Shown here: positions 4,742 to 53,185 of the stretch, piece after piece
Layout: every line of letters begins with the position of its first letter
Position numbering within the stretch: position 1 is the first letter of the stretch
NCBI GenBank assembly: GCA_003635185.1
Contig: PYJA01000069.1
Span: 1,027-65,026, forward strand
Source: Candidatus Poribacteria bacterium
GTDB lineage: Bacteria; Poribacteria; WGA-4E; WGA-3G
Reading direction: 5' to 3'
Length of the DNA stretch: 64,000 bases
The notes under the pieces: model-generated
Told to the model about the DNA's origin: nothing
Seen by the model: the letters and a program-made list of their open reading frames with translations, nothing else
Databases searched by the model: none
Translations under genes and position numbers: made by a program

Positions 4742-6781
4742 ATGAATGAATTTTTAACATTGTTACTCCCGTGGAAAGAGACACCAAATGACCAGATTTC
4801 CGACATTTTTGTTTATATCATTGGTGCTTCCTCCCTCATATTATTGATTTATTTTGTTGTAAAAATTTACCTCCGATACAACTCAATTAGAAATTTAACA
4901 CGCAAAATCAAAAACAGTCAATTCGAAAGACCCGCTCAGCCTTCAATATTACAGGAATTAAAAGAAGAGTTTGCTCGTAAAACCGAATTTACTGAAGCAT
5001 GGCAGGAATTTGAAGATTCACTGATTACACGTCAGCGTGATGAAAACCAAAAAATAGTATACAAAACAGATGAAGCATCATTTTTCTTCAGTGAAGACCG
5101 TCTACTTAGGCAATATATGAATCTTCGATTTTGGAATAGCATTCCTGCTATATTGGTCGGATTCGGGATTCTTGGGACTTTTGTCGGCTTAGTTTGGGGA
5201 TTGATACCGTTTTCAGATACTGATTTTCAAGAAACAGATGATATCAAGACTGCAATTGAAGGACTTCTCTCTGGAGTATCAACAGCGTTTGTCACATCCG
5301 TTTGGGGAATGGTAACTTCTCTGTTGTTTAATGCAGTGGAGAAGTTGACAATTGGGGGTTTAAATAGTGAAATATCAAATCTGCATCGGTCACTTGATAG
5401 AATATTTACATTAACAGTCGCAGAGGAAATTGCATTTAGGCAAGAAGATGAATTAGCACAACAGACATCAGCTCTTAAATCGTTTTCAACAGATTTATCG
5501 AATGTAATTATAAGTGCAATGACAGAAGGTAGGCAAGAATTAATTCAGGAGCTTCGCAAGTCAACTGATATTTTTAGCTATGCAATTACTGAAAAATTGG
5601 ATCTTACTCTTAATGCCTTGAATACTGCTATTTCAAGTTCTGAAAAAAATATAATAGATGCTATGAAGGAGGGTAGACAAGAAATTATTTCAGAGATCCA
5701 AAATGCTCCTGATGCATTTAGTGAAGCAGTGGCAAAACAGTTGGAACCAAGCCTTGATAAATTGAACGAAACCGTAGAAAAATTGCGACAAGAAAAAGAA
5801 GAATCTTCTACTGAAGCCATCCGAGAATTGGTTGAGGAATTTAAAAAAGCACTTTCAGGATCATTCACAGAAGAGATCGAAACTCTCGTGAAGAATCTTA
5901 GCACAGTGAGTCAAAGCCTATTAGAACTACCAAATCAGATGAGAACAATGATGGATGGGGTACAAGAAAAAATTGATGAAATCTGTGAATCACTGCAAAA
6001 AGCAATAGACGGACAAACTACATCTACGGAAGATACGATAAGGAAAATCTTGCAAGAACTTCAAAAAGCAATGGACGAATTGAAAGCAGTAATAGATTCC
6101 ACTACATCAACAGCCGCAACGGAATCGTCTGAAATGATTAGACAAATCCGAGAGAGTGTAAACGAAACTACAGATCGACTTAAGAAAATTTTTGAGGAAG
6201 GTGAAACACATATCAGCGTATTATTAGATCGTCAAAATAAATTGATTGAGGCGATTGATAAACCTATATCCAAATCGCAAGAAGCACTTCAGGCTGGAAA
6301 TGTTCTGTTGCAAGGAGTTAATACAAGCCTAATTAATGCAAATGAAATGATTGTGACAATGCAAGCATTTTCAGATCAATTGAAGGGATCCGCGGATACA
6401 CTTACAACCGCAGGAGAGAACCTGAAAGCATCAAGTGATGCGTTCAGTCACCAGAATGCCGAATATCTTAAAGCGAATCGCGAAACAAATCAGCAGATTC
6501 AAGAGTCTCTCCAACAATCCCAAAAATTGCTTGATGAGTTCGCTGGTAAATTTGAAACAATTCAGTCTGGGTTACAAGGCATCTTTGAGGAAATTCAGCA
6601 AGGCATGGATCGTTATTCTTCAACCACCCGTGAATCTATTGGAAAGTCTATTGATGAATTCTCTAAGCACTTGGCAGATGCTGCAGACAAGCTTGCTGGT
6701 AGTGTTTCTGCACTTGACAACAGTGTTGAGGAATTAAGTGACATGATTGAGCAATTTTCGAAGTTACGGAGAGACAGATAA
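4742..6781 (+). CDS. zorA: ZorA-like protein: MotA/ExbB-type proton-channel domain with a long coiled-coil tail (Zorya type I)
   Basis: Three TM segments include the MotA/ExbB-like block ILVGFGILGTFVGL...LSGVSTAFVTSVWGMVTSLLFN. These are followed by about 430 aa of low-complexity helical sequence. The stop overlaps the zorB start (TAATG). Confidence 0.85.
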   Translation: MNEFLTLLLPWKETPNDQISDIFVYIIGASSLILLIYFVVKIYLRYNSIRNLTRKIKNSQFERPAQPSILQELKEEFARKTEFTEAWQEFEDSLITRQRDENQKIVYKTDEASFFFSEDRLLRQYMNLRFWNSIPAILVGFGILGTFVGLVWGLIPFSDTDFQETDDIKTAIEGLLSGVSTAFVTSVWGMVTSLLFNAVEKLTIGGLNSEISNLHRSLDRIFTLTVAEEIAFRQEDELAQQTSALKSFSTDLSNVIISAMTEGRQELIQELRKSTDIFSYAITEKLDLTLNALNTAISSSEKNIIDAMKEGRQEIISEIQNAPDAFSEAVAKQLEPSLDKLNETVEKLRQEKEESSTEAIRELVEEFKKALSGSFTEEIETLVKNLSTVSQSLLELPNQMRTMMDGVQEKIDEICESLQKAIDGQTTSTEDTIRKILQELQKAMDELKAVIDSTTSTAATESSEMIRQIRESVNETTDRLKKIFEEGETHISVLLDRQNKLIEAIDKPISKSQEALQAGNVLLQGVNTSLINANEMIVTMQAFSDQLKGSADTLTTAGENLKASSDAFSHQNAEYLKANRETNQQIQESLQQSQKLLDEFAGKFETIQSGLQGIFEEIQQGMDRYSSTTRESIGKSIDEFSKHLADAADKLAGSVSALDNSVEELSDMIEQFSKLRRDR

Positions 6782-7536
6782 TGTATAGAACTCTTCCTAA
6801 ATCAAAATCGCTCACAGATGAAAATCCGTTCAGTTTATCATTAGGCGATTTAATGGCAGGTTTATTGCTAATTTTCGTGCTATTACTCTCTTTTCTCATG
6901 TTGGATTTGATGGAAAAAGAGGAACGTGATAATGAAATCAATAAGAGATTGTTGGAAATCTTTACAGATTACGTAACGTTACGCGAAAATTTATACAAAG
7001 ACCTTAAGAGCGAGTTTGAAGAAGATCTCCCAAAATGGAATGCAGTTTTGGATAGAGAGAAACTTTCTGTCCGTTTTAGAGAGCCAACAGTATTATTTGC
7101 ACAAGGACAGGCAGAAGTGCAGTTTGCTTTCAAAGAGATATTGGATGATTTTTTTCCTCGTTACATAAAAATTCTAAAACGCCCTGAATATGTCAATAGC
7201 ATAGCAGAAATTCGGATTGAGGGACACACATCGAGTGAATGGTCAGAGTTAGTTAGTGAAGAAGATGCATATATTCTCAATATGGAGTTATCACAAGACA
7301 GAACCAGAAGCGTGCTTCAATATGTGCTGGATGTACCTGAAATCGGTACTCATCGAGATTGGATACAGCAGCTCTTAACTGCAAACGGCTTATCTTCAAG
7401 TAAGCTGATTGATAATCCAGATGGCACACAGAATAGAGAAGAATCAAGACGAGTAGAGTTTCGCGTACGGACTAATGCAGAAAAGCAGCTTGAGAAAATT
7501 AAAGAACTTGAACACCTTATCGGAGATAAACCGTGA
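6781..7536 (+). CDS. zorB: ZorB-like protein: MotB-type TM plug with conserved Asp plus an OmpA-like peptidoglycan-binding domain
   Basis: N-terminal SLGDLMAGLLLIFVLLL carries an Asp just before the TM segment. C-terminal OmpA-like blocks are IRIEGHTSS, LSQDRTRSV and RRVEFRV. There is a 4-nt overlap (GTGA) with zorC. Confidence 0.85.
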   Translation: MYRTLPKSKSLTDENPFSLSLGDLMAGLLLIFVLLLSFLMLDLMEKEERDNEINKRLLEIFTDYVTLRENLYKDLKSEFEEDLPKWNAVLDREKLSVRFREPTVLFAQGQAEVQFAFKEILDDFFPRYIKILKRPEYVNSIAEIRIEGHTSSEWSELVSEEDAYILNMELSQDRTRSVLQYVLDVPEIGTHRDWIQQLLTANGLSSSKLIDNPDGTQNREESRRVEFRVRTNAEKQLEKIKELEHLIGDKP

Positions 7537-8975
7537 ATTCAGCAAAAAAGCTCCTTCAATTCAATTTTGATGCCGATGAATTTGCCCGTCGTGCACTGAA
7601 ACCAATTGAAATTCCAACAGAAAGATTCGCTATTTTGGAAAAAATTATGAAAGATCATGATGGAAAGGGAAATGGTCCACCTAATCCGGTAACTCTTCGC
7701 GAGATTTACCGGATCTTCATAAACACTCCGCCAGGTAATCTCCGAAACAAATTTAACACGCTCAGACGAATCCGACAACTTGCATGGGCATTGACCTACT
7801 CCGAAGATGGGCTGCCTCGTATTGTGGATATACCGCAACTCAAAGATGCACTTCAGTTAATTGAAAATCGTTTTCGTGTGAGTGCACTGCGCGGTGTTTT
7901 TAAAACTTTACTGGAGGCGTGGGATAGCCCAAATGCCAATATGCTACGTGCGTTTGTTAAAAAGCATTTGAAAGATTATGATGGAAAACAAAAATTCTTT
8001 CAGAAACTGAAAACAAACATGCGTTGGTATTGTGAGGAGAACGGCACGACTCAACTTGCAACAACTCTATTGCGTTCACAAGTGAAGTTGGCTGATATCT
8101 GGTCATTTCTTGATCTTGAATCATCTAAAAATGAATATATGTACCGTTATTCCTACTTTGGATCTGTTGCAATGGCGTATGTTTCTATCGGCAGTCCTAA
8201 CGATATAGAGGTTGTTAAGGATGTCGTTGAATTTGTCAAGGAACATAATAATGATAAAACAAGTCGTGCTGTTTTATCTAAACTTATTGAACAACTCGGA
8301 TATGATGCCTCTGAAGGTTTGCGCCAACCTATTCAATCTTATGTTCTTCAAAAGTGGAGAGATCCGCGACTTGCAGGATCGAACTGGCACGATGTCTCTC
8401 CTGAAGCGCGCAAAATCTTCACTAAATGGCTTACAGAAGCTGACCTCGACTTTTTCTTTGATATAGTATCCAGAGCATGCCATGACCAAAAATTTGCCTA
8501 CAGAAAAGCATTTTGGTTGGCATACTTTGATCATATTTCCTTCTGTTGTCTAGTGTTACGAGGAAATGCTGAGTATCTTTTCAAACATGACTCGCAAGCC
8601 CTGCAATACTATCGTGATCGTCGCCCAGCGACGTTGAGAGGAGGGAGTAGCGATCAACATGCTTTCATTATTCAGATGGGTAATTATACCTTTGTTGAGT
8701 TTAGTACGGCGGGAGCATGTTATGTATATTATAATGTTAATCTTCCCTTTGAATTGGGGAAATCGGAATATTACATGCACGAGTTGCGGAATCAAGATTG
8801 GGCGGTACATCGAGTAATTCACCAAAATTCAGAAAACTATTATTGGCAAAAAAATTTGGCAGAATGGATAAAAAAGGAAATCGGATATGAACCTATTCGT
8901 AGTTATCGACTTCATGCTCAAGATGAGAGAGAAAGTAATCAAAATCCAGAGGCGTATATAAGATTTCCTCTGTAA
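7533..8975 (+). CDS. zorC: ZorC-like protein (EH-signature-type domain)
   Basis: It occupies the third position of a zorAB-led operon, with translational coupling to zorB. The C-terminal region (RKAFWLAYFDHI...FVEFSTAG...HRVIHQNS) is consistent with my recollection of the EH-signature family. I could not run a profile search. Confidence 0.65.
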   Translation: MNSAKKLLQFNFDADEFARRALKPIEIPTERFAILEKIMKDHDGKGNGPPNPVTLREIYRIFINTPPGNLRNKFNTLRRIRQLAWALTYSEDGLPRIVDIPQLKDALQLIENRFRVSALRGVFKTLLEAWDSPNANMLRAFVKKHLKDYDGKQKFFQKLKTNMRWYCEENGTTQLATTLLRSQVKLADIWSFLDLESSKNEYMYRYSYFGSVAMAYVSIGSPNDIEVVKDVVEFVKEHNNDKTSRAVLSKLIEQLGYDASEGLRQPIQSYVLQKWRDPRLAGSNWHDVSPEARKIFTKWLTEADLDFFFDIVSRACHDQKFAYRKAFWLAYFDHISFCCLVLRGNAEYLFKHDSQALQYYRDRRPATLRGGSSDQHAFIIQMGNYTFVEFSTAGACYVYYNVNLPFELGKSEYYMHELRNQDWAVHRVIHQNSENYYWQKNLAEWIKKEIGYEPIRSYRLHAQDERESNQNPEAYIRFPL

Positions 8976-9149
8976 TTTCAGGCGGCTTATGAGAGAGAAA
9001 GTAATCAAATCCAGAGGACATTGAGAAAATACGTATAAATTGCGCTAACAAGAATTGTAGGCAAAATTGCAAATTTCTGTCACAGAGAATCAGTTAAGAA
9101 TTACAAGTCCAACATGTAGAACAACTTTTGAATACTAAACGGCGGTGTT

Positions 9150-12100
9150 ATGATGCTTAACCTATTTGGAAAGAATTCATCTGAACCAGAACAATTAAAC
9201 TGGCAAGAAACACCAGACGGTATCCTCTTTTCTGCACTATCAGAAAATTTGTTTCTCACAGAATACGCCGCGAACCTACCAGCAGATGCTCACCAGGCAC
9301 AAGCACAATGGATGTTACTCAAGGAACTACTTGATAACGGCCAAGCAGAATCATCAGATAGCGGAGTTCACATCCCAAATGAGGAAATATGCCAACTTAA
9401 GTCAGTTGAACAAGGGTTGCTCGGTTTACCAGAACCGTATCCGTTTGATATTGAAATCCGATCGCATGGAACATTTAATCAGACAGAGTTTCGGTACAAT
9501 TATCAATTCCTACAACCGGATCGAAAACCTTTGCATCCAAAACGAATTGGCTGTATTTTGCGTTTGACAAAGAATTGGATATATCTCTTGACGAGCGAAC
9601 AGTTTGGGCTTCTGGAGGCTTTAGATGCGTTCAATGCACGCGAGGATTCTGAGAAAGATTTTCAAAACAATCTGCTTGAATTCGCAAAGATAAAAGGTCT
9701 TGCAAAAGGGACAGGTGCCGCGCTTGAGCTTTACCTTAACCAAAATGAAGTTGTTGCGCCGGAAACCGTTCGCTTACGTCTGCGTGAGTCAGGTGATGAT
9801 ATTGAAATAATTCCTGACGTGGCAGGGGTTGACAATGAAAAGTTTGAAGAGCTCTTTGATAAATTTCCTAATCCTGAAGCCACCTATAATTTACCGCATC
9901 CTGACGGTGGCAGAACCCGCGTCCTTTTTCAAGAGAAACAGCGTGAAGCGTTGGAATCTATTAAAGAAAATCGGCGCGTGTCTCGCGAACAACTCGCGGA
10001 GATGGCTAAACACCCACAAGCATACTTTGATCCTGAAATCGTTGAACTTGATCCAACAGATGAAAGCCTATCTTTCAGTGAACGTGTTCGTGAAATTGGC
10101 ATTTACCAACCGAAAGTCTATCCGTTTATTTCGCCTTACAAAAGCCAATGGATCCCTGGTATTTTAGTTGACGATGATGAATCAGGTACGCGCACAAAGA
10201 TTCTGATTAAGACCGAAGAGGAGCTTGCCGAATTGAAGGAAGCGATTAGGGAGGCAAAGCGGACTGGTCAGAGTCATGTGACACGAAATGGAGAACAGAT
10301 TCCGATTTCTGATCTTGAGGAACTTCTCCCATTTATTGAGGACCAACTCATAGATCGCAAAAAGCCGAAACGGAAACCGGAAATGACGGTTTTAATTATT
10401 GATGAGAACATTGAAGAGCGTGGTTTCATTGGAAAAACTAAGGGTGAGGAACCTATTCAACATCACCTTGAACCTACTCCAAACCTTAAACATGAGGTTA
10501 AACTCTTACCGCATCAGGAGGAAGGACTTGCGTGGGCGCAGCAGCTTTGGAAAAAAACTTATCCTGGTGGATTACTCGCTGATGACATGGGACTTGGCAA
10601 AACGTTGCAAGTACTCTGCTTTCTGGAATGGCATCATAGCAAATTTCGTCAGCAAGAATCGCACCGGCAACCGTACCTGATTGTCGCACCAATTGCACTT
10701 TTAGAAAACTGGGCAGCGGAATATCCAAAATTTTTTGACAACGGCGCGTTAGATTTTGTTACCTTATATGGAAAGGAATTACAAAACTACAAAATTGACT
10801 CTTCCGAAGCCAGCAAAATCCAAATTCCTGAGATAGATGGAGTGGAACGACTTGTAGAATTACGCAAACGTCGTGGCGCGCTTGATGTCAAACGCCTACG
10901 TAATGCTGATGTAGTGTTAACAACCTATGAAACTGTCCGAGATTTTCAGCTGGATTTGGGTTCAATTCCGTGGGGAGCAGTTGTGATTGACGAAGCGCAA
11001 CGTATCAAAACACCAGGAACACTTGTCACGAATGCGCTGAAAGCACTGAATACAGATTTTCGCATCGCAATGACAGGAACACCTGTCGAAAACTCGTTAA
11101 TGGATTTATGGTGCATAACCGATTTTGTGGCACCGGGTTATCTTGATAGTGCTAAAAGTTTCAATACTGAATTTTGCCGCCCTCTTGAAAAACCTGAGAC
11201 AGATATTCGGGCACTTGGCGAGCAAATTCGCAAGCGCATTGGTGTTCACCTTAAAAGACGGCTAAAGACTGAAATTCTGGATGATCTTCCCGAAAAACAC
11301 ATTCATGTTGAAAATTGTCAACATGAAATGCCTCCAACACAAGTAGAACGTTATCAGGCTGCACTACAATCCACAAAAGACAGTGGAGCAACAGGACCGC
11401 AACAACGCAACCGCATCTTACAGGTTCTTCACCAATTACGCGACATTTCTGACCATCCCTTGTTATCTGATTCAAAAGGAGAAGAATCGCCTATTTCTGA
11501 ATTGATCGAACAGTCTGCTAAACTAATAGTAACTGTAAAACTACTTGAGGACATTCAGGTTACTGGCGAAAAGGTAATTTTGTTTGCAGACCGTCGAAAA
11601 ACGCAGCATCTTCTTGCGCGCGTTATTAAGGAACAATTTGAGTTAGGAGATATTTCTATTGTCAACGGGGATACGCCAGGAAGTAAACAGAGAGAAGGTT
11701 CAATGAAAATCAGTCGTCAACAAGCCGTTGATAGTTTCCAAGATACTCCAGGATTCAACGCTATCATCATGTCACCTCTTTCTGCTGGTGTCGGTCTGAA
11801 TATCACTGAAGCAAACCATGTGATTCACTATAGTCGATGGTGGAATCCTGCTAAAGAAGACCAAGCGAGTGACAGAGTATATCGTATCGGACAAAAACGA
11901 CCAGTACATATCTATCTGCCAATGGCTACCCACAGTGAGTTTAAAACCTTTGATGTCATTCTACATGAACTCCTTGAGCGAAAACGCCAACTTTCACAAG
12001 ATACGTTGTTTCCCACTGAACGTGCAGAAGTTAAACCGGCGGAGTTTTTATCTGAGTTGCAGAAAACCCCACCTGAACCGAAAATAGGTTCACCATTGAC

Positions 12101-12527
12101 AATTGAGGATGTTGATGAACTTGATCCAAGATTCTTTGAAGTTTTTATTGCCACCTTATTTCAGAGACAGGGATACCACGTTGAATTAACACCTACTTCA
12201 GGTGACAAGGGAGCGGATGTTATCGTTCATGGGGCTCGAGGGGAAAATTCTGGGTTTCTGATACAGGTCAAACAGCGTCGAGTGGGTGGAAAACCAAAGA
12301 ATGAAGCAGTAAATGAGATTATCGCTGCAAAACCTTTTTATGAAGAAAAATATGGGACTACTTTTAAACCCGTTGTCATAACAAATCGTACTTTTACTAA
12401 AGAGGCGCGCCGTCTCAGTCGTACGAATGAGGTGCAGATGTACGAACGTGAGTGGATAATTGAAAATTTGAAGCAATATCCTGTAACATGGATAGATGTA
12501 AATCGATGTCAGTTTCAAACAGTTTAG
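9150..12527 (+). CDS. zorD: ZorD-like protein: SNF2-family helicase with a C-terminal Mrr-like (PD-D/ExK) nuclease domain
   Basis: SNF2 motifs: LLPHQEEGLAW, LADDMGLGKTLQ, VIDEAQRIKT, MTGTPVENSLMDLW. Helicase-C: SAGVGLNITEANHVIHYSRWWNPAKEDQASDRVYRIGQ. C-terminal Mrr_cat-like block: FEVFIATLFQRQGYHV...SGDKGADVIV...LIQVKQRR. Confidence 0.85.
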   Translation: MMLNLFGKNSSEPEQLNWQETPDGILFSALSENLFLTEYAANLPADAHQAQAQWMLLKELLDNGQAESSDSGVHIPNEEICQLKSVEQGLLGLPEPYPFDIEIRSHGTFNQTEFRYNYQFLQPDRKPLHPKRIGCILRLTKNWIYLLTSEQFGLLEALDAFNAREDSEKDFQNNLLEFAKIKGLAKGTGAALELYLNQNEVVAPETVRLRLRESGDDIEIIPDVAGVDNEKFEELFDKFPNPEATYNLPHPDGGRTRVLFQEKQREALESIKENRRVSREQLAEMAKHPQAYFDPEIVELDPTDESLSFSERVREIGIYQPKVYPFISPYKSQWIPGILVDDDESGTRTKILIKTEEELAELKEAIREAKRTGQSHVTRNGEQIPISDLEELLPFIEDQLIDRKKPKRKPEMTVLIIDENIEERGFIGKTKGEEPIQHHLEPTPNLKHEVKLLPHQEEGLAWAQQLWKKTYPGGLLADDMGLGKTLQVLCFLEWHHSKFRQQESHRQPYLIVAPIALLENWAAEYPKFFDNGALDFVTLYGKELQNYKIDSSEASKIQIPEIDGVERLVELRKRRGALDVKRLRNADVVLTTYETVRDFQLDLGSIPWGAVVIDEAQRIKTPGTLVTNALKALNTDFRIAMTGTPVENSLMDLWCITDFVAPGYLDSAKSFNTEFCRPLEKPETDIRALGEQIRKRIGVHLKRRLKTEILDDLPEKHIHVENCQHEMPPTQVERYQAALQSTKDSGATGPQQRNRILQVLHQLRDISDHPLLSDSKGEESPISELIEQSAKLIVTVKLLEDIQVTGEKVILFADRRKTQHLLARVIKEQFELGDISIVNGDTPGSKQREGSMKISRQQAVDSFQDTPGFNAIIMSPLSAGVGLNITEANHVIHYSRWWNPAKEDQASDRVYRIGQKRPVHIYLPMATHSEFKTFDVILHELLERKRQLSQDTLFPTERAEVKPAEFLSELQKTPPEPKIGSPLTIEDVDELDPRFFEVFIATLFQRQGYHVELTPTSGDKGADVIVHGARGENSGFLIQVKQRRVGGKPKNEAVNEIIAAKPFYEEKYGTTFKPVVITNRTFTKEARRLSRTNEVQMYEREWIIENLKQYPVTWIDVNRCQFQTV

Positions 12528-17807: not shown

Positions 17808-18788
17808 CTAAATAGGAACGCAAAAACATTCGTTAATTGGTGCATTTTTATCCGTTGTTTCGTTTGTTTGTTGAAAAAGAGGCAATTGTTTTCTCAGCCT
17901 CTCACAATCATATTCCAACCACTTCATTGCAAAGTCTGCAAACTCGGGATTTATTTCTATGCCAAGATATTCAACGCCTAACGCTTTCGCCACAACACAT
18001 TCCGAACCCGAACCGGCAAACGGCACAAGTACTCTGCCATCTGCTCCATTGATACGAGATAGGATGAGTCGTCTCGTTAATTCCATCGGTTTTTGAGTGG
18101 GATGCTTCAAAATGTCGTGTTCACGGTGTTCAGATAAATCGGCAGGAGGATAAATTTGAGATCCGCACGTTCTACAAACAAACCATCTTTCAGAACGACC
18201 AGCACCACCTGCTAAAGCCGGAATTTTGATAACATCTCTCGGCAAAGCACCATTTTTATGGGCATTATAAATAGTCATTTTGCCTGGTGAACCGTAGCGC
18301 GAAGGCGTGTCTTTTCGGACTTTTCCTGCAGCGTTCTTTAAGAAACTTTCGGTATAAGGTTCTCTGATTTGGTCTATCTCCAAATTGGTGCGCGGCATAT
18401 TCGGTTTCCACAGACACAATATTGTTTCGTGAGACCTTTGCCAAAATTTTAATGACGGGACAGTCTTGTTGGTATAATGCCATACTAACCAACGTTGCTC
18501 GTGGATAGGGAAACAAACAGATATTCTTGCAATAATTTCTGGAAACCCATACAAGTAGAGTAAGCCATCATCTGTGAGGAGTTCAAGGCAGTCTTTTATC
18601 CATGATTCTGCCCATTCAACATAATTGTCTATCGGCATCACTTCAGTATCATTACCAAAATCTTTACCGATGTTGTAGGGCGGATCAGCAATAATCACCT
18701 GATATTGCTTGCCAGTCTTGATTAACTGTGGCAATACTTCCGTTGTGTCTGCAACGATAATCGTATTAGTGAATGTATCTGCCTTCAT
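17808..18788 (-). CDS. DNA methyltransferase M1 (N6-adenine/N4-cytosine, beta-class order: DPPY before FxGxG)
   Basis: Motif [10 protein letters not shown], then HPTQKP, then motif [12 protein letters not shown]. The ATG at 18788 (MKADTF...) is supported by the duplicated relic at 20495-20568. Confidence 0.9.
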
Positions 18789-18848
18789 GTTTTGTTCCGA
18801 ATGACGTAGATTAGTAGTGCAACTATCAAAACTCAATTTTTTATGGTA

Positions 18849-19787
18849 TTATTGTTCAAAGAGAGACGGTTGATCTGTTTTGCTTTCGTCATCTGTGTTG
18901 CGATATTTGCCCACATTCTTGCCTTTTGATTTACGTTCCTTAAAGGTCATCTCTACTTGATGCAACCCAAGTTCTTCTTGGATTTTAGACATCTCACTGT
19001 GAGCATTATCTAATCTGTCGATCGTCATTTTCATGTATTCTTCGCTTCTGTCAATGCCAATGTATTTATGCCCTAAAAGTTTTGCTGCAACAGCAGTAGT
19101 ACCACTGCCAATGTAGGGGTCTAACACAACGCCTTGTGTCTCTGTATCTAAAATTGATATAATTACGCGTGCTGGTAACCAGAGCGGAAATGGTGCTGGA
19201 TGCGGATTATTTTTGCCGTTTTCAGGCACACCGCGCCATATAGATGTCAACTTCGCATCACAGGATCTCAATTCTGTGCCAATTAATTTGTTGTCTATAG
19301 GCTTATACAGCCAATAAATACGTTCCTCTACTTGCCAAAACCGCCAACCCCTTATGTTTCCTGCGATCATTCTGTCCCAAATGATTTCCTGCTTCACCGT
19401 CCATTCAGTTTTACGCAACCAGTCCATCGGATGATACATGTTGCCTCTCTCCCATCGGACTTTGTGATTATAGAAAAACGAACCTCCGGGAGCGGTTACA
19501 CGGTAAATCTCATTTAGCACATCTACTTGGTGCTGCTGATATTCAGGTTCAGGCACGGCATCTTTGTAGACATCATAAACCACGTTTTTGACAAGCCAAC
19601 CTTTATGCTTTTCCTGCTTGTTATAGGGCGGTGAAGTAACGCCAACATTGACGACATTATCGTCTATCTTATTCAAAACGCTAAGGGTATCGCCTTCAAT
19701 GAGTTTGCCTTCTTCGAGCGTATCTTTCGTAATTTGCTTACTTTCCAGAAAGTTACCTTTAAGCTGATGTTGATCGGTAATATTCAT
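18849..19787 (-). CDS. DNA methyltransferase M2 (SPPY-type, N4-cytosine/N6-adenine, beta-class)
   Basis: Motif IV GVTSPPYN and motif I VVLDPYIGSGTTAV. Its ATG overlaps the TGA of the upstream nuclease gene (ATGA). Confidence 0.9.
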   Translation of the reverse strand: MNITDQHQLKGNFLESKQITKDTLEEGKLIEGDTLSVLNKIDDNVVNVGVTSPPYNKQEKHKGWLVKNVVYDVYKDAVPEPEYQQHQVDVLNEIYRVTAPGGSFFYNHKVRWERGNMYHPMDWLRKTEWTVKQEIIWDRMIAGNIRGWRFWQVEERIYWLYKPIDNKLIGTELRSCDAKLTSIWRGVPENGKNNPHPAPFPLWLPARVIISILDTETQGVVLDPYIGSGTTAVAAKLLGHKYIGIDRSEEYMKMTIDRLDNAHSEMSKIQEELGLHQVEMTFKERKSKGKNVGKYRNTDDESKTDQPSLFEQ

Positions 19788-20452
19788 TGTGCTGTTTTCT
19801 CCAAATGTTCGAACACACCTCTTGTTATGTACGGCTTTGATTCGATGAGTTGCTGTTTAGAAGCGGTATAAATCGTTTCGAAACTCTCTACGTCCTTGTA
19901 ATGTATAAATGAAAAATCTGCACTTCGCAGGTATTGACCTATTCTATCACCATTAGGAAATCTGCGTTCAAGTTGTGCTTGTAATCGGGATGTAAAACTT
20001 TGTTCGTTAAAACTGAACCCGAATATGTAAATGAGGCGTCCATTAACAAAACCAGCAACCAACATGTTAGGGTTTTCTTCTTTATGCCTTTCGAACTTTT
20101 GCCAGCTGTAATCTGTGAAATTACCGCCACCATTCAATTTAGTGGGGGACTTAGCAGTAGAATCAGTCCGATAATTGCGAGGTTTTATTTCGCAGCGTTC
20201 GACTTTTCCAGTAAGCGTATTATGTCTAAAACCGTTATACCCCAGTTTTTCTGAGCTAGGTTCATACCCAGCTACTACAGCTACAACTAACTCGCGCATA
20301 GTAGAAGAATTCAAATCATTGTAATATTTCGTAAGTAATTCTAAAAGCATCGCAATCAGACTGTCTTTAGATTTACTGATCAGATTGGCACTGATTTCGG
20401 TGTGTTCTTTTATGGTATAATCTTCGATAAGTTGTAAAAGGTCCTTGTTCAT
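19784..20452 (-). CDS. putative type II restriction endonuclease (PD-ExK-like)
   Basis: A 222-aa ORF translationally coupled to M2. It has a candidate catalytic E-x-K block (VERCEIKP). I recognise no other family. Confidence 0.55.
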   Translation of the reverse strand: MNKDLLQLIEDYTIKEHTEISANLISKSKDSLIAMLLELLTKYYNDLNSSTMRELVVAVVAGYEPSSEKLGYNGFRHNTLTGKVERCEIKPRNYRTDSTAKSPTKLNGGGNFTDYSWQKFERHKEENPNMLVAGFVNGRLIYIFGFSFNEQSFTSRLQAQLERRFPNGDRIGQYLRSADFSFIHYKDVESFETIYTASKQQLIESKPYITRGVFEHLEKTAQ

Positions 20453-20650: not shown

Positions 20651-21382
20651 TCAGTTACTGCTTCTTGGTACTTGTTCAATAATACGGTCAGCAAGTTTTG
20701 AAAAAGGTAAACTTTGGAGGTAAACAGTGCCAGTGCCTTGTAGAGTCGCGAGAAAAAGCCCTTCACCACCGAAGAACATTGACTTTAAGCCTTTGACCAT
20801 TTCAATGTCATAATCAACGCCAGATGTGAAAGCGACAAGGCAACCGGTATCAATGCGGAGTGTGTCGTTGACAAGTTCCTTTTTGATGACAGTCCCACCA
20901 GCATGCACAAAAGCCATGCCATCGCCACGTAGGAGTTGGAGGATAAAGCCCTCACCACCGAAAAAACCTCTTCCCAATTTTCGTGAAAAGGCGATGCTTA
21001 GCTCGGTACCCAAAGCGGCGCATAGGAAAGCATCCTTCTGACAGGTTAGTTCTCCACCCATTTCAGCAAGGTCAATGGGGATAATATGACCGGGATAGGG
21101 CGCGGCAAAAGCAACTCGTCTCTTGTTGCTGCCCGTATTGGTAAAGTGAGTCAAAAATAGCGACTCACCAGTGAGCGCACGTTTGCCTGCACTGAAGAGT
21201 TTGCCCATTAAACCCTCGTCACCACCTGAACCGTCGCCCATTTTTGCTTCGTACTCTATGTCTTCCTCCATCCAGTTCATCGCACCGGCTTCCGCGACAA
21301 TTGTCTCACCTAAGTCAAGTTCAACCTCAACGACTTGCATATCGTTGCCAAAAATTTCGTAATCTACTTCGTGGCTTTGCAT
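20651..21382 (-). CDS. AIM24 / TIGR00266-family protein (DUF124)
   Basis: The pattern is characteristic of the family: VDYEI.G...QVVEVEL......VAEAGAM.WM, then GGEGF, then GTVYLQSLP. Confidence 0.8.
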
Positions 21383-21570: not shown

Positions 21571-23139
21571 CTAATTTTCATTTTTTTCTACTGCTTCCAC
21601 AGAAATTTTTGCATAAAAAGCATTGACGTTTCCTTTACCACTGAACCAAGTGCCGGTAGCACCCAGCTTAAAGATTTTACCTTCGTTAAAAGGATATTGT
21701 ATTTTTCCTATCTGTCCAGATGGAATATCCCATACAGAGGCCCGTGCTTCGGTTGGAATTCCTCTTGTAGGCAATTCGGTATCGCCATCAAACAGATCAA
21801 ACGATCCACCTGATTTGGCGCTACCCATCCGAATATCAATCATAAGCACACCACCATCTTTAAACGCTATGGTATCAATCGTAATAACGTTATAGTCTTG
21901 CTCGCCGTATCCTGGCGCGCGAAGTATGTGTAGGACCTCTTGCTCAAAATGTTCTTTATTGAGGGTTATATTTGCACCAGTTAATAGAGGTTCTGATATG
22001 TTCTCACCGAATCCAGGGAATTTCGCATCTAAGGAATCCATGAGAAACATAAGGTAACCATCCTCTTCCGAAATGCCCTTTTGATAGCAGTCGTCAAAGA
22101 AATCATTAAGAGGAAGTTTTCCCATCACATCAAATTCAGGAGAAATCACTAAACAATCCACCGGTGAACCTTCTGTCCATCCTTCCATGATGGCTTGTGC
22201 CAAAGGATATGTTGTGTTTAATGTTTTTCCTTCTCGCTCGCGTCTTTTTGCTATTGGCTCTCGTAAACTGGGAGTACGTCCTAATTCGGCATTGGTTACC
22301 CAAGTATTGATAAAGTTTTCATTTAGGAATTCAATGATTTGGTTATCAGAGAGGACAACTGCCCTCAATTCTTTGCCGCTCCCTCAGCAAGCCTCGTCGA
22401 CTAATGGACCATCTATTGAGACTACATGAATGAGCTTAACCTCTTGTTCTGCTATCTCTACTGCTTGATCTGGTGGCACCCAGTTAATTTTTTCCGACTT
22501 GTAGAAACACAGTATTAGTGCACGTTCCGCCTCTTCTTGGGTAATTGACATGGCGAATTCGAGATCATCAGGTTGTGTGCCTGCACAGAGTTCTATTTGA
22601 GGACAGAAACCGATGTCTGTACAGCCTATCGTATCCCAACCAACATCGAAATTCAGTGTCGTTTCAGGCACGTGCATCTGAAAGCGGACGATTTTATCTT
22701 TGGTTTGGTCGATGACGAGATGACCAGCAAACTGGGACGGTGTGAACCAACCCCCCTTTAAAGCAAATTCTGCATGAATGCGAAACACAATGTCTGCAAA
22801 TTCATCGTTGTAGGCGCGTAGACATGCCCACAGACCTTGTGAGTCTTCCGCATCCATTTCCAGGCGTGGATCGGGATGGAGTTGCTGTAGCAACGTCAGC
22901 GCGCTTTCTTCTTGAATCTGCCAACATTCACCCACCGCAACCGCTTCTGATGGCAGAAAAGATTGAAAAACCGAAGCAGGATATTGCTTTTCCGGTTCAA
23001 CGACACGCAGATTTGCCAATTCGTCCCACTCCACGTGGAAATTGTATTGTGTGTATTCAATCGGAGCAATGAAGCCTTTGACGCTGACTTCCGCGTTCCT
23101 ATCAAGATTAAGTGTGATTTGGTTTTGTAAAGTTTCCAT
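21571..23139 (-). CDS. candidate selenoprotein, copy 1 (522 codons if the TGA at 22384-22386 is decoded as Sec); thioredoxin-fold-like centre with a C-U-G motif
   Basis: ORFs 22384..23139 and 21571..22368 share one frame and are separated only by a TGA. Conservation with copy 2 runs across the TGA. Confidence 0.6.
22351..22366 (-). promoter_or_regulatory. small hairpin 17 nt downstream of the in-frame UGA (candidate bacterial SECIS apical stem-loop), copy 1
   Basis: The mRNA reads UGA-N17-GAGGGC-AGUU-GUCCUC. That is a 6-bp stem and a 4-nt loop containing G and U. Confidence 0.4.
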
Positions 23140-23140
23140 T

Positions 23141-24700
23141 TCAGTTTTCCTCTACAGAAATTTTTGCCTTAAAAGCATTGGTGCTGCCCTTCTCACTTCT
23201 ACCGTAACACCCGGTAGCACCCAACTTAAAAAACTGACCTCGGTCAAAACGGTGCGTGAGTTGCCCTGTCTCATCAGGTTCCAACCACTTCATCGCAAGT
23301 ACCATGTATTTAGTCACTCTTTCTGTTGTAGGGAGGTCGTCGTCACCATCAACTAAATAGAAGTGCCCTTCCGCATCGGCTCTCCCGGTTTCAATATCAA
23401 TAGTTAGCGTGCCGCCCTTTTCAAACGCCCTTGCATCAATTACAACGACTGTATAATCCTTATAACCAACTATTGGTGTCCGAAAAACATCAAAGACATC
23501 CTGTGAAGGTTCTTCACTGTTCAGAGTGATGTTCCCCAATCCGGGCTGCTTCCCCTCCAAACACTCCTTGAGGAACATAAGGTAACTCTCCTCGTCTCGG
23601 CGTTTTTTCTCCCAATTGTCGTTGAAGAATTCATTGACGAGTTGTCTGCCCATCAATTCAAAATCAGCTGATATGACGAAACAGTCTACGGGTGAACCTT
23701 TCTTTGATCCGGTTTTCCACCCCTTTATAATGGCTTGTGCCAACGGATGGCTTGTGTCGAATATCTTACCTTCGCGCTCGCATCTTTTGGCAATCGGATC
23801 TCGCAAACTCTGAGTACGTCCTAATTCAGCATCTGCCACCCAAGTGTTGATGAAATTTTCGTTCAGGAATTCAATGTTTTGGTCGTCAGAGAGAGCACCT
23901 GCCCTCAGGCTTTTGCCACTCCCTCAGCACGACTCATCCGCAAGTGGTCCACCTGATGAAATGGCGTGAATCGGTTTCTGTAGGACAGGTGCCAATTCCA
24001 ACGCTTTCTCCAGCGGGACCCAGTTAATTTGCGCTGACTTGTAAAAACATAACATTAATGTGTGCAATGCTTCCTCTTGTGTGATTGCTACTGTGAATTT
24101 AGCATCTTGCAAAACGTCTTGTTCACCTGCACAGAGTTCCATTTGCGGACAAAAACCGATGTCCGCTCCGCAGAGTCCATCTCTAATTGTCCAACGTGCA
24201 TCAAAGTTCAATGTGGCATCCGGAACGTGCATCTTGAAGGAGGCAACTTTCTTTTCTAATCGGTCAATAACCAGATGTCCAGCAAACTGCGATGGCGCAA
24301 ACCACCCTTTTTCTAAAACGAATTCCGCGTGAATACGGAACAGAATCTCAGCAAACGCACTGTTGTAGGCGCGTAGACATGCCCACAAACCGTAAGAATC
24401 CGCCCCACCAATTTTCAACTCCAATTGTGGGTTTGGACTGAGTTGTCGCAGCAGTGTTAATGCGCCTTCTTCTTGAATTTGCCAACATTCACCCACTGAA
24501 ACCGACTTCGATGGCAGGAATGCTTGAAAAATGGAGGTAGGATATTGCTTCTCTGGTTCAGCAGCCTTTAGATTTGCCAATTCGTCCCAATCCACGTGGT
24601 AGTTGCGTTGGGTATATTCAATCGGGGCAATGAAACCTCTGACTAAAACCTCTGCATCACCGTCAAGATTAAGCGTGATTTTGTCTGATAAAGTACTCAT
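23141..24700 (-). CDS. candidate selenoprotein, copy 2 (519 codons if the TGA at 23924-23926 is decoded as Sec)
   Basis: ORFs 23924..24700 and 23141..23839 are in one frame. The 28 codons after the TGA contain no stop and no ATG/GTG/TTG, yet they encode the conserved LSDDQNIEFLNENFINTW block. Confidence 0.6.
23891..23906 (-). promoter_or_regulatory. small hairpin 17 nt downstream of the in-frame UGA (candidate SECIS apical stem-loop), copy 2
   Basis: The mRNA reads UGA-N17-GAGGGC-AGGU-GCUCUC. Spacing is the same as in copy 1. The two differing 3'-arm positions swap G-C and G-U pairs, so pairing is preserved. Confidence 0.4.
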
Positions 24701-24788: not shown

Positions 24789-25308
24789 TCTAAAGATAGA
24801 TGGTTGTTCAGATAAGGTCCGAGGGAACTCCGATTCCCGATTACCGTCGCGATTCGAAGATCGCTCATACCTTGGATTAGATATAACGAGGTTTTGTCGT
24901 AGCACAAAAAGCAGTGGTACACCTGCCTCGTGCGCGCAGAAAAATTACCGAATTAATAACTTAAACTTCATACAGTTTGCGCTACAGACAAAGCCTATCA
25001 ATCATGTTTTCCTTGACAAAAAAAGTATATCACATAAAATAGGAGTAGATTTTCGCAATTATCTTGGACCCACACACTTTAAAATATCAAAGGACGAATA
25101 TGTCAATAACCCTGTGCTTTAGCATCGGGGCTTGTGCGAACCACCTGCCAAGCGGTCAATGCACGAGTTAAACGGTTGACTACAGTAAAACATCGCATTA
25201 TCTTAACGTGGCCGTTGACACAATGTATTGGATGCTCCCCAAGTCTGATACCTCTTGGATAGTGTGATCTGGATGGGGCAATATAAACTCTTCGGAGGAT
25301 TACTAACC

Positions 25309-26343
25309 ATGTTAGTTCCAGTAGTAGCTAAGAATCAAAATCCACTTATGCCCACTAAGCCTTCGCGGGCAAGAAAGTGGATTAGAGATAAGAAGGCAAC
25401 CCCGTTTTGGAAGAACGGCATCTTTTGTGTTAGGCTTAATATTGAACCTTCAGACAGATATTTTCAAGAGATCGCAGTAGGCGTGGATCCTGGAAGTAAG
25501 AAAGAGGACTTTACAGTCAAGTCTAAAGCACATACCTATCTGAATGTGCAAGCCGATGCTCACAAAGTTGTTGGCAAGAAGATTGCCAAAAGACGCGAAC
25601 TCCGCAGAAGCAGACGATCTCGGAAGTGTCCGAATCGAAAGAATAGGACAAACCGATTAGCCAACAAAGCACGTGTCCCTGCTGGCACGCGTGTGAGGTG
25701 GGACTGGAAGCTAAGGATAGTGGATTGGCTGTCTAAATTGTATCCTGTTACGAAAATCTGTGTGGAGGACATCAAAGCACGGACAAAACCTGATAAGGAT
25801 AGATGGAATCGGTCTTTTAGTCCGTTGGAAGTAGGGAAACGCTGGTTTGTTTCGGAACTGATAACACGGTTTGGTGTGGGCAACGTATTTATGTATAAAG
25901 GTTTATGGACTTCTGCACGTAGGCAGGCATTAGGCTTAGAAAAGTTATCTGATAAGTTGTCTGACGATTTCTCTGCACATTGTGTAGATAGTTGGGTGAT
26001 GGCACATTCAGTTGTCAACGGAGATAGCAAAAAGGCGATGTCCATGAAACCTGATAATACGCAAGTCTTTTGCATAGCACCTATACCGATACGGAGACGC
26101 GAACTACACCGACAAAATCCACAACGCGGTGGTAAAAGACCCAGATACGGTGGCACAATGTGTTTAGGCATTGTCAAGAATACACTTGTCAAACACGTCA
26201 AACACGGATTGCTGCGGGTAACAGGATACGACACAAGAGGCGGACTCAATCTCAGTGAAATCACAAGCAGTAAGCGTATCGGAAGAGGTGCGAAGCCACA
26301 GAGTTTTCGCATACTCACAAAACTAAACTTTCAATACAAATAG
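25309..26343 (+). CDS. isrB: IsrB-like OMEGA-family RuvC nuclease (IscB relative lacking the HNH insert)
   Basis: N-terminal PLMP motif (VAKNQNPLMPTKPSRARKW), RuvC-I GVDPGSK, and an Arg-rich bridge helix KRRELRRSRRSRKCPNRKNRTNR. RuvC-II is ICVEDIK and RuvC-III is AHCVDSW, with only about 70 aa and no HNH/Cys motifs between them. The ATG at 25309 follows GGAGG. Confidence 0.75.
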   Translation: MLVPVVAKNQNPLMPTKPSRARKWIRDKKATPFWKNGIFCVRLNIEPSDRYFQEIAVGVDPGSKKEDFTVKSKAHTYLNVQADAHKVVGKKIAKRRELRRSRRSRKCPNRKNRTNRLANKARVPAGTRVRWDWKLRIVDWLSKLYPVTKICVEDIKARTKPDKDRWNRSFSPLEVGKRWFVSELITRFGVGNVFMYKGLWTSARRQALGLEKLSDKLSDDFSAHCVDSWVMAHSVVNGDSKKAMSMKPDNTQVFCIAPIPIRRRELHRQNPQRGGKRPRYGGTMCLGIVKNTLVKHVKHGLLRVTGYDTRGGLNLSEITSSKRIGRGAKPQSFRILTKLNFQYK

Positions 26344-51772: not shown

Positions 51773-53185
51773 CTACAACAAAGTCCTTTCTCCAAACGGT
51801 AATTTCGGCAAAACGTCGTTGAAATAGTCCTGAATCTCGTATATCTGCAGCGCTGGTGCTTCCATGTCAAAAAGCGGGTGTTCATAACTTCCTGCACGGG
51901 CTGCCTCTGTTCGCATACCACTGGAAGGCGGCGAGGTAACCACAAAAACGCCTAAATCCGCCTCCTCGTTCTGCATAGCGGTGCGGAAATCACGGATATG
52001 TCCGAGCGTATAATTTCCACCTTTCACCTGCGCGACAGCTTTTCCATATACCTGCTTACCTTTTACTCTACCGAGTGGAAACCTAAAAGTACCATCTATC
52101 CCGCCATCTGCCACTTTCTTTGTATTCGACTTGAATTTCAGCACGTGGGTGACGCACCATTCCTCAAAGCCCTTCGGGTCGGTGCGAGCGAGTGCTAACG
52201 CCTGATCCACATTCTCTGGTGTGCCAGCGATCGTGACGGTGTCCCGATGTTGTGGGAACAACCGCTCGAATTGTTGTTCGACTGCGCCGATCGCGAGATA
52301 GGTTAAGTCTATGCCGATCCAGTGTCTGTTTTGTTCTTCCGCTGCCATGAGCGTTGTGCCACAACCACAGAATGGGTCAAGGACAAGGTCACCTTCGTTT
52401 GATGAGGCGGCGATGATGCGTTTGTAGAGAGGGATAGGTTTTTGAGTAGGATAGCTAACACGTTCCTTGGCTTGTGAATTTAGATATGAAATCTCCCATA
52501 CGTCGCGCATCGCTTTTTCCCTACTTATATCACCTGTGTAAATTTGATCTATAGTACCGTCTGCATGCACAGTTGTTTTCCGTCTCCCTTTGTGTTTTGA
52601 CTTTTCACTATACGGTTCTGTTAATATATTAAATTTGCTTAACTTTCTGTCTTTTACATAGAACAGAAGAATGTCGTGCATCCTTTGAAAATGCTTTGTA
52701 GCACCTGTCCAACGGTGATATGACCACACAATTTCGTTCCTGAAATTCCGAGTGTCAAACACTGCATCCAAAATGATTTTGAGGTAATGGCTTGCTGTGG
52801 GATCGCAGTGTAGGTATAGACTGCCAGTCGACTTAAGTATCCGATGCATCTCAACAACTCTGATTGCCATCATGACAAGATATGCCATCATCGGCGTTTC
52901 GTTCAGGAATTTTCGTAGTCCTTCGATTGTATCACCTACTAATCCACCGACATCAACCATCAGCTCTCTGTATGCATCTTCCGCTGCGTCGCCCCATGCC
53001 CACGTATCAGTGAACGCTTGTACAAGCGTCTCGGGTTTGCGTCCATGTTCGTCTCGGTATGGAACAAAATAGTTTCGTTTAGAGTTGAAAGGTGGGTCGG
53101 TGGCGATGAGGTCAATGCATGCGTCTGGGAAGTTTCGCATCTCGGTGAGGTTATCGCCACGGATAAGGGTTCGGTTCTGGTGCAT
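51773..53185 (-). CDS. DNA methyltransferase (DPPF/N6-N4 type) fused to a C-terminal Mrr-like restriction-endonuclease-fold domain
   Basis: Motif IV IATDPPFNS, then YPTQKP, then motif I LVLDPFCGCGTT. The C-terminus VADGGIDGTF....AVAQVKGG....GVFVVTS matches the Mrr_cat pattern. Confidence 0.85.
   Translation of the reverse strand: MHQNRTLIRGDNLTEMRNFPDACIDLIATDPPFNSKRNYFVPYRDEHGRKPETLVQAFTDTWAWGDAAEDAYRELMVDVGGLVGDTIEGLRKFLNETPMMAYLVMMAIRVVEMHRILKSTGSLYLHCDPTASHYLKIILDAVFDTRNFRNEIVWSYHRWTGATKHFQRMHDILLFYVKDRKLSKFNILTEPYSEKSKHKGRRKTTVHADGTIDQIYTGDISREKAMRDVWEISYLNSQAKERVSYPTQKPIPLYKRIIAASSNEGDLVLDPFCGCGTTLMAAEEQNRHWIGIDLTYLAIGAVEQQFERLFPQHRDTVTIAGTPENVDQALALARTDPKGFEEWCVTHVLKFKSNTKKVADGGIDGTFRFPLGRVKGKQVYGKAVAQVKGGNYTLGHIRDFRTAMQNEEADLGVFVVTSPPSSGMRTEAARAGSYEHPLFDMEAPALQIYEIQDYFNDVLPKLPFGERTLL

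Follow-up and report, generated by a model that had tools for sequence, protein, structure and literature searches.

Tandem TGA-split genes of Candidatus Poribacteria as probable Cys-Sec homologues of animal selenoprotein N

The selenenylsulfide/selenolthiol chemistry of a vicinal cysteine-selenocysteine (Cys-Sec) pair is established for thioredoxin reductase (TrxR). Reviews liken the Cys-Sec centre of TrxR to the SCUG motif of animal selenoprotein N (SELENON), in which U stands for Sec; this motif has been described (PMC8584023, PMC12839072). The animal SELENON mRNA also carries a helper hairpin, the Sec redefinition element (SRE), just past its UGA. Prokaryotic relatives are not mentioned in a 2026 review of SELENON. 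Here, two tandem genes, each split by one in-frame TGA, were analyzed in a 64,000-nucleotide stretch of DNA from the sponge symbiont Candidatus Poribacteria (assembly GCA_003635185.1, contig PYJA01000069.1, positions 1,027 to 65,026), which is called the window below. We put a probability of roughly 85% on the reading that both genes encode full-length SELENON homologues of about 520 residues, in which a hairpin would direct Sec insertion at the UGA and which would work as thioredoxin-fold oxidoreductases.

The two genes and their internal UGA codons are located as follows.

23141..24700, minus strand: copy 2 (upstream gene), recoded open reading frame of 519 residues; ATG 24700..24698; stop TGA 23143..23141
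21571..23139, minus strand: copy 1 (downstream gene), recoded open reading frame of 522 residues; ATG 23139..23137; stop TAG 21573..21571
23924..23926, minus strand: in-frame UGA of copy 2, residue 259; preceded by TGC (Cys); motif S-C-U-G-S-G-K
22384..22386, minus strand: in-frame UGA of copy 1, residue 252; preceded by TGC (Cys); motif A-C-U-G-S-G-K

The stop TGA of copy 2 lies one base ahead of the ATG of copy 1 on the minus strand. The original prediction, made from the letters of the window, had paired the open reading frames (ORFs) 22384..23139 with 21571..22368 and 23924..24700 with 23141..23839, and each pair does share one frame of the minus strand; its N-half coordinates take in the TGA itself. 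The peptides it quoted match our translations exactly. Each read-through translation contains exactly one internal stop, which is TGA in both copies. Alignment of the read-through proteins gave 58% identity end to end, with similarity undiminished at the TGA, in agreement with the claimed conservation across it. The 28 codons past the TGA of copy 2 (GSGK...NTW) were also confirmed to contain no ATG, GTG, TTG or stop codon, and copy 1 has a TTG 5 codons downstream of its TGA. No other TGA-split ORF pair with long coding flanks was found in the window.

To define the codon usage at the Sec column, one genome per bacterial species was scanned, and the best 80 of 276 matching stretches gave 79 distinct loci. 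Nearly all of them are titled Poribacteria and a few only 'uncultured bacterium'. Among these best 80 of 276, the closest stretch is 90% identical to copy 1. The family profile detected 224 copies in the 79 loci and the window, two of which were too short for the Sec column, so that 222 were counted. The codon at this column was TGA in 218 copies, GGC in two, TGG in one and TCA in one, and neither TAA nor TAG occurred in any of the 222. Therefore, the split-gene pattern is far beyond chance. The codon before the TGA encoded Cys in all 160 copies tabulated. An explanation of Gly and Trp at this column of full-length homologues as translation artefacts of code 25 or code 4 was rejected, since the DNA has real GGC and TGG codons. 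A protein search returned 314 relatives, and the named ones were all from Candidatus Poribacteria. In the databases, the N-terminal halves stop exactly at ...DE[AS]C and the C-terminal halves begin at the Leu of LRA; GenBank names these split pieces hypothetical proteins.

The relationship to animal SELENON was evident at the profile level. The hhalign comparison of the Poribacteria and animal SELENON alignments showed a probability of 100% and an E value of 4.1e-42 over 332 columns, spanning residues 34-377 of copy 1 and 146-555 of SELENON, up to the end of the latter. In this alignment, the TGA column coincides with the SCUG Sec. Copy 1 also matched marmoset SELENON in BLASTP, with an E value of 8e-38. 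An exhaustive family profile search among 1.84 billion representative proteins returned 822 relatives, mostly halves that end or start at the Sec column, together with a few uninterrupted proteins that cross it. The profile search also matched an EF-hand protein of Nematostella (E 7.9e-32), whose gene model skips the Sec site and whose database relatives bear the name selenoprotein N. Two animal SELENON mRNAs in our locus set, L083 and L084, read DDQSC-UGA-GSGR.

Cys-type homologues were found among the uninterrupted proteins. P0134, P0137, P0144, P0149 and P0182 show the motif C-C-G/A-S/T-G-K with Cys at the Sec position, and all five are bacterial and known only from metagenomes. P0179 has C-C at this site as well, and the codon of P0134 at the Sec position is TGT. 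The expectation of Cys homologues thus held for other bacteria but not for Poribacteria, where Gly, Trp and Ser were found instead. Because of the hhalign, BLASTP and profile matches, the N-terminal domain and the redox centre are taken as the conserved core of SELENON. The flanking domains had been left unrecognised in the original prediction; the N-terminal one belongs to the SELENON core, and only the C-terminal beta-sandwich lies outside it. Judged by sequence, motif and predicted fold, copies 1 and 2 are assigned as bacterial homologues of animal SELENON. The earlier comparison of Cys-Sec-Gly with the GCUG of TrxR is apt as chemistry, but the real kinship is with SELENON, whose SCUG occupies the same column.

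Neither read-through protein had a match in Pfam or NCBIfam, and a PDB sequence-profile search gave nothing relevant and no related chain. No Pfam or NCBIfam model describing bacterial SELENON homologues was found, and the literature searched held no description of such homologues or of this Poribacteria family.

Each UGA is followed by a hairpin resembling a bacterial selenocysteine insertion sequence (SECIS).

23891..23906, minus strand: SECIS-like hairpin of copy 2, GAGGGC / loop AGGU / GCUCUC, starting 17 nt past the UGA
22351..22366, minus strand: SECIS-like hairpin of copy 1, GAGGGC / loop AGUU / GUCCUC, visible in the centroid fold

Between the two copies, two inner pairs exchange G-C and G-U. 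Across the family, the hairpin spans +20..+35 from the U of UGA, with GAGGGC, a loop of AGGU or AGUU, and GYNCUC forming a 6-bp stem. In 193 unique sequences, 95% of the hairpin cells were paired, compared to 45-82% when the 3' partner was slid, and no column shuffle equalled the observed pairing. Pair 23-32 joins two synonymous third positions and alternates between G-C and A-U, a switch with a Fisher p value of 1.5e-15, not corrected for relatedness. Pair 24-31 occurs as G-U, G-C, A-U and U-A. Of 155 unique sequences, 151 have a G as the first or second loop nucleotide, and this placement is the bacterial SECIS consensus (PMC13582414).

The synonymous sites were frozen from codon -1 to codon +11 around the UGA, with rare codons fixed. 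The background was taken from neighbouring codons in the same family genes. Cys TGC accounted for 99% in the frozen stretch and 16% in the neighbouring codons, Gly GGG for 85% and 20%, Arg AGG for 81% and 5%, Gly GGT for 98% and 18%, Val GTC for 92% and 28%, and Leu CTC for 97% and 11%, respectively. The hairpin and the frozen sites fit a putative bacterial SECIS. Like the SECIS of E. coli fdhF, the Poribacteria element is an in-ORF hairpin 3' of the UGA, with its apical loop 23 nt on and a loop G. From bSECISearch and fdhF work, the loop is said to fall within a window of 16-37 nt, and the loop G and U are reportedly important. Unlike the fdhF element, the Poribacteria hairpin has a stem of 6 bp with a tetraloop, its lower stem and bulged U are unsupported, and it has no Rfam match. 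A longer helix, GGGAG/CUCUC, from the minimum-free-energy fold of copy 2 was rejected, as it showed no covariation and was broken by position-4 changes.

The relatives lacking TGA were inspected for the same hairpin. The Gly-type P0001 keeps the stem with an AACU loop, and the hairpin is absent in the Trp-type P0014 and the Cys-type P0134. In most TGA-less relatives, the element is thus altered or lost.

The predicted domains of both proteins are listed below with approximate boundaries.

22549..23139, minus strand: copy 1, N-terminal beta-rich part of the SELENON-like core, about residues 1-197 (from hhalign and the AlphaFold2 model of P0134)
22006..22548, minus strand: copy 1, thioredoxin-like domain with C-U, about residues 198-378 (from AlphaFold2 and Foldseek)
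21592..21978, minus strand: copy 1, C-terminal beta-sandwich, about residues 388-516 (from the AlphaFold2 model of P0001 and Foldseek)
24089..24700, minus strand: copy 2, N-terminal beta-rich part of the SELENON-like core, about residues 1-204 (from alignment to copy 1)
23537..24088, minus strand: copy 2, thioredoxin-like domain with C-U, about residues 205-388 (from alignment to copy 1)
23150..23536, minus strand: copy 2, C-terminal beta-sandwich, about residues 389-517 (from alignment to copy 1)

The fold was modelled on the Cys-type P0134 with AlphaFold2, using a deeper alignment of bacterial and animal sequences. This model reached a mean pLDDT (predicted local distance difference test) of 87.2 and a pTM (predicted template modelling score) of 0.83. 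Its N-terminal domain is rich in beta structure, the domain after it has the pattern beta-alpha-beta-alpha-beta-beta-alpha, and the C-C pair, equivalent to C-U, lies in the loop joining strand beta-1 to helix alpha-1. The top Foldseek matches were DsbH, Thioredox_DsbH, thioredoxin, ERp19 and the UAS domain of UBXD7, with the structures 2ju5 (DsbH), 7tkv, 3ira, 2lst, 1sen and 2dlx. In this confident model, the Cys-Sec pair is predicted to take the active-site position in a thioredoxin fold of the DsbH/UAS type, as the original prediction of a thioredoxin-fold redox centre had proposed. When C-U-G-S-G-K is set against W-C-G-P-C-K, the motifs suggest that Sec stands where the nucleophilic Cys would be and that Gly replaces the resolving one. 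An earlier model of the Gly-type P0001 (pLDDT 66.6) was too uncertain in the active-site loop and was replaced by that of P0134. In the P0001 model, Foldseek showed that the C-terminal beta-sandwich resembles PliG, collagen-binding/PPC and CBM domains. Many Poribacteria members, such as P0017, P0020, P0026 and P0038, have this beta-sandwich twice. A 17-kb locus holds 1 to 6 family copies; copy numbers of up to 6 in 17 kb and the doubled beta-sandwich suggest a family that is expanding and diversifying quickly.

The proposed mechanism is as follows. When the ribosome arrives at the UGA, the hairpin 17 nt downstream would serve as the bacterial SECIS. It would recruit SelB with Sec-tRNA(Sec), and Sec would be placed beside the invariant Cys. 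The product would be a thioredoxin-fold thiol/selenol oxidoreductase of about 58 kDa, probably a reductase. Its Cys-Sec pair would stand at the first-Cys position of CxxC, at the start of helix alpha-1 of a DsbH/UAS-type fold, and would most likely alternate between the selenol/thiol form and a vicinal selenenylsulfide. This redox role is suggested by the predicted fold and by analogy with the chemistry of SELENON and TrxR. The window copies have no signal peptide and should therefore be cytoplasmic; some relatives do have one. The C-terminal beta-sandwich is probably a binding module. The core of the original prediction, a Cys-Sec-Gly selenoprotein family, is supported by the conserved TGA, the hairpin covariation, the frozen sites, the Cys homologues, the predicted fold and the Sec-decoding genes reported for one family-bearing genome.

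The Poribacteria proteins and animal SELENON share a homologous core of about 340 residues, with Sec in the same column of S/A-C-U-G-S-G-K/R. In both, the motif lies within a thioredoxin-like domain, which is predicted for the Poribacteria proteins. Several features differ. The Poribacteria proteins are without the N-terminal type II membrane anchor and the luminal EF-hand: the window proteins begin about 30 residues ahead of the conserved core, Pfam finds no EF-hand in them, and the hhalign match begins at SELENON residue 146, past its EF-hand. At the C-terminus, they carry one or two beta-sandwich domains that SELENON lacks, and the family is much expanded, in tandem arrays. Sec decoding should use an in-ORF hairpin in Poribacteria, whereas animals use a SECIS in the 3' untranslated region together with the SRE. 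The redox-dependent activation of SERCA2 and the reductase activity in the endoplasmic reticulum are those of animal SELENON, and the SERCA2 substrate does not occur in bacteria. The membrane anchor and EF-hand that are missing in Poribacteria define the calcium-sensing role of the animal protein.

The similarity to the GCUG of TrxR lies in a vicinal Cys-Sec followed by Gly, with an expected selenenylsulfide/selenolthiol couple. The two are non-homologous, and in TrxR, a flavoprotein, the motif forms the flexible tail at the C-terminus, whereas the C-U of the Poribacteria proteins is internal (residues 251-252 of 522 in copy 1), at a CxxC position, with no flavoprotein domain detected. DsbH, Thioredoxin_7 and UAS domains were the best structural matches of the predicted C-U domain, but no sequence similarity to DsbH-type proteins was detectable by Pfam, NCBIfam or PDB profiles. 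Unlike CxxC oxidoreductases, the C-U-G-S-G-K motif has Gly where the resolving (second) Cys would sit. Selenoproteins truncated at CU dipeptides, such as the MerB-like family of Haft and Gwadz, are also bacterial, carry a CU dipeptide and are routinely misannotated as truncated or split. They are unrelated proteins, and the Poribacteria family matches no NCBIfam model.

Evidence for Sec decoding in Poribacteria came from published genomes. The single-cell genome of Ca. Poribacteria WGA-3G contains two TGC-TGA family copies with the hairpin (our locus L032), and for the same genome two SelA, one SelB and one SelD are reported (Table S4, PMC5649159). SelA and SelB are enriched in sponge symbionts (PMC5649159), and a 2026 study describes a Sec-type [NiFeSe] hydrogenase from Poribacteria. 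The three Sel proteins of WGA-3G and the Poribacteria hydrogenase give good indirect support for Sec decoding.

Several results weigh against the preferred reading of the two genes. None of selA, selB, selC and selD was seen in the window and fetched loci: tRNA-Sec was absent from the window and from 60 fetched loci, tblastn with an E. coli SelD query found no selD in about 1.4 Mb of fetched loci, and no sel gene turned up when 20 other ORFs of the window were scanned with Pfam. These missing genes say little, because the window and the fetched loci are a small part of each genome. The few non-TGA Poribacteria paralogues carry Gly, Trp or Ser and not Cys, and such residues in place of a catalytic Sec are unusual. 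The Ser-type (TCA) copy in locus L054 (translated-frame residues 3027-3126) has both the stem and the AGGU loop intact, so the hairpin tracks the TGA imperfectly. Since stem and loop are kept, this Ser codon may be a very recent change; alternatively, the TCA copy is maybe a decaying one. The hairpin is short, with 6 bp and without a supported lower stem, and pair 23-32 is mismatched in 31 of 155 sequences. Neither a SECIS nor any other family of relevance matched in Rfam, whether at gathering or at permissive thresholds. ORF clustering of 82 loci found no conserved redox partner gene beside the arrays.

Recoding of the UGA through the hairpin to another amino acid, either Cys, brought by a tRNA(ReC)-type tRNA that depends on SelB, or Trp, by near-cognate reading, is unlikely. 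tRNA(ReC)-like tRNAs do recode UGA when a SECIS is present (PMC13582414), one Poribacteria paralogue has TGG (Trp) at the Sec site, and Cys serves at the Sec position in other bacteria. However, a Cys or Trp product could be had at lower cost from TGY or TGG, which would then be expected often, and such a codon was found in 1 of the 222 copies; the retention of TGA in 218 of them would be left unexplained. The homologous animal residue is Sec, and a family-bearing genome is reported to encode SelA, SelB and SelD.

It is very improbable that the TGA is a true stop, so that an N-half terminating at Cys and a C-half with its own downstream start act together as a complex. Gene callers do split the loci in this way, hundreds of database entries end with ...DE[AS]C or begin with M-R-A-G, and the TTG 5 codons beyond the TGA of copy 1 could allow a restart. 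Yet an ordinary stop would be expected to vary between TAA, TAG and TGA, and all 218 of 218 stops were TGA. In copy 2, the 28 codons without a start are conserved, and separate halves would cut the predicted thioredoxin fold between strand beta-1 and helix alpha-1. Moreover, the homologues of animals and other bacteria each form one chain, in which this column holds Sec or Cys. Pseudogenes, assembly errors or a genome-wide TGA sense codon are scarcely credible: only the internal stop itself speaks for them, whereas the TGA recurs in 79 independent assemblies, long-read chromosomes included, with both flanks strongly conserved, and, as the original prediction had noted, TGA is a normal stop elsewhere, ending 4 of the 25 window open frames of at least 300 codons as well as copy 2. 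Examples of complete Poribacteria chromosomes with the family are OZ244889, OZ241980 and OZ244804.

With hairpin-directed Sec insertion as the preferred reading, the position of the hairpin was compared to that of the animal SRE. In the mRNAs L083 (1517-1600) and L084 (1434-1520), one of them vertebrate and the other coral-like, a long hairpin, the SRE, extends from +9 to +47 after the UGA. The hairpin axis is at +28 nt in these two animal mRNAs and at +27.5 in Poribacteria, over the same L-R-x-x-x-L codons. In a rough neighbour-joining tree, which included no sponge sequence, the animals formed one clade among several deep bacterial clades; as evidence of origin this tree is weak. It is a tentative and rather doubtful possibility that SELENON is at root a bacterial Sec family and that the animal SRE is a remnant of the bacterial SECIS. 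In the reverse direction, an animal gene may have been acquired by sponge symbionts, and its SRE may have turned into a SECIS. Descent between SRE and SECIS is speculative in either direction. If true, either way, one RNA hairpin would have passed between the bacterial and eukaryotic Sec-decoding systems. Because the hairpin occupies the same place in the two groups, the question of where the eukaryotic SRE came from is open to direct test.

In humans, SELENON is the disease gene of SEPN1-related myopathy, and its catalytic chemistry has largely been deduced from the SCUG motif. The soluble, anchor-free bacterial relatives and their natural Cys, Gly, Trp and Ser variants suit structural and enzymatic work, and the deep alignment already yields a confident fold model. 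The family also adds an unrecognised, heavily expanded selenoprotein family to sponge symbionts, in which annotation splits the genes into 'hypothetical proteins'.

The secreted or membrane-anchored non-Sec relatives lie directly downstream of a gene for an extracytoplasmic function (ECF) sigma factor. These ECF-linked relatives are Gly-type in Poribacteria and Cys-type in other bacteria, and the link was not seen in the Sec-type tandem arrays. Two loci with this arrangement are given below.

L001, 4630-5952 and 6001-7674: ECF-linked non-Sec relative
L086, 7796-8824 and 9001-10254: ECF-linked non-Sec relative

P0137 combines a sigma factor, a hydrophobic segment and a SELENON-like domain in one chain. 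This suggests that some family members act as redox-sensing anti-sigma or sensor domains.

An AIM24-family gene (20651-21382, minus strand) lies directly downstream of copy 1, and AIM24 adjoins the family in 23 loci. It recurs with enolase-superfamily and ornithine cyclodeaminase genes, which looks like conserved synteny, not a functional link. Divergent from copy 2, a 362-residue ORF at 25255-26343 (plus strand) has an RRXRR domain (Pfam PF14239), which is typical of IscB/IsrB-type RNA-guided nucleases. For this ORF, no Rfam HEARO or omega-RNA match was found in the window, and no PADLOC match. Defence genes are abundant in the region around the SELENON-like pair. A complete anti-phage system, Zorya type I, occupies 4742-12527 (plus strand), with ZorA at 4742-6781, ZorB at 6781-7536, ZorC at 7533-8975 and ZorD at 9150-12527; its PADLOC matches were strong, with an E value of 0 for ZorD. 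Restriction-modification genes are present at 17808-20452 (minus strand), as two adjacent N6/N4 DNA methylases with a 222-residue ORF without family match, and at 51773-53185 (minus strand), as a methylase fused to an Mrr-like nuclease.

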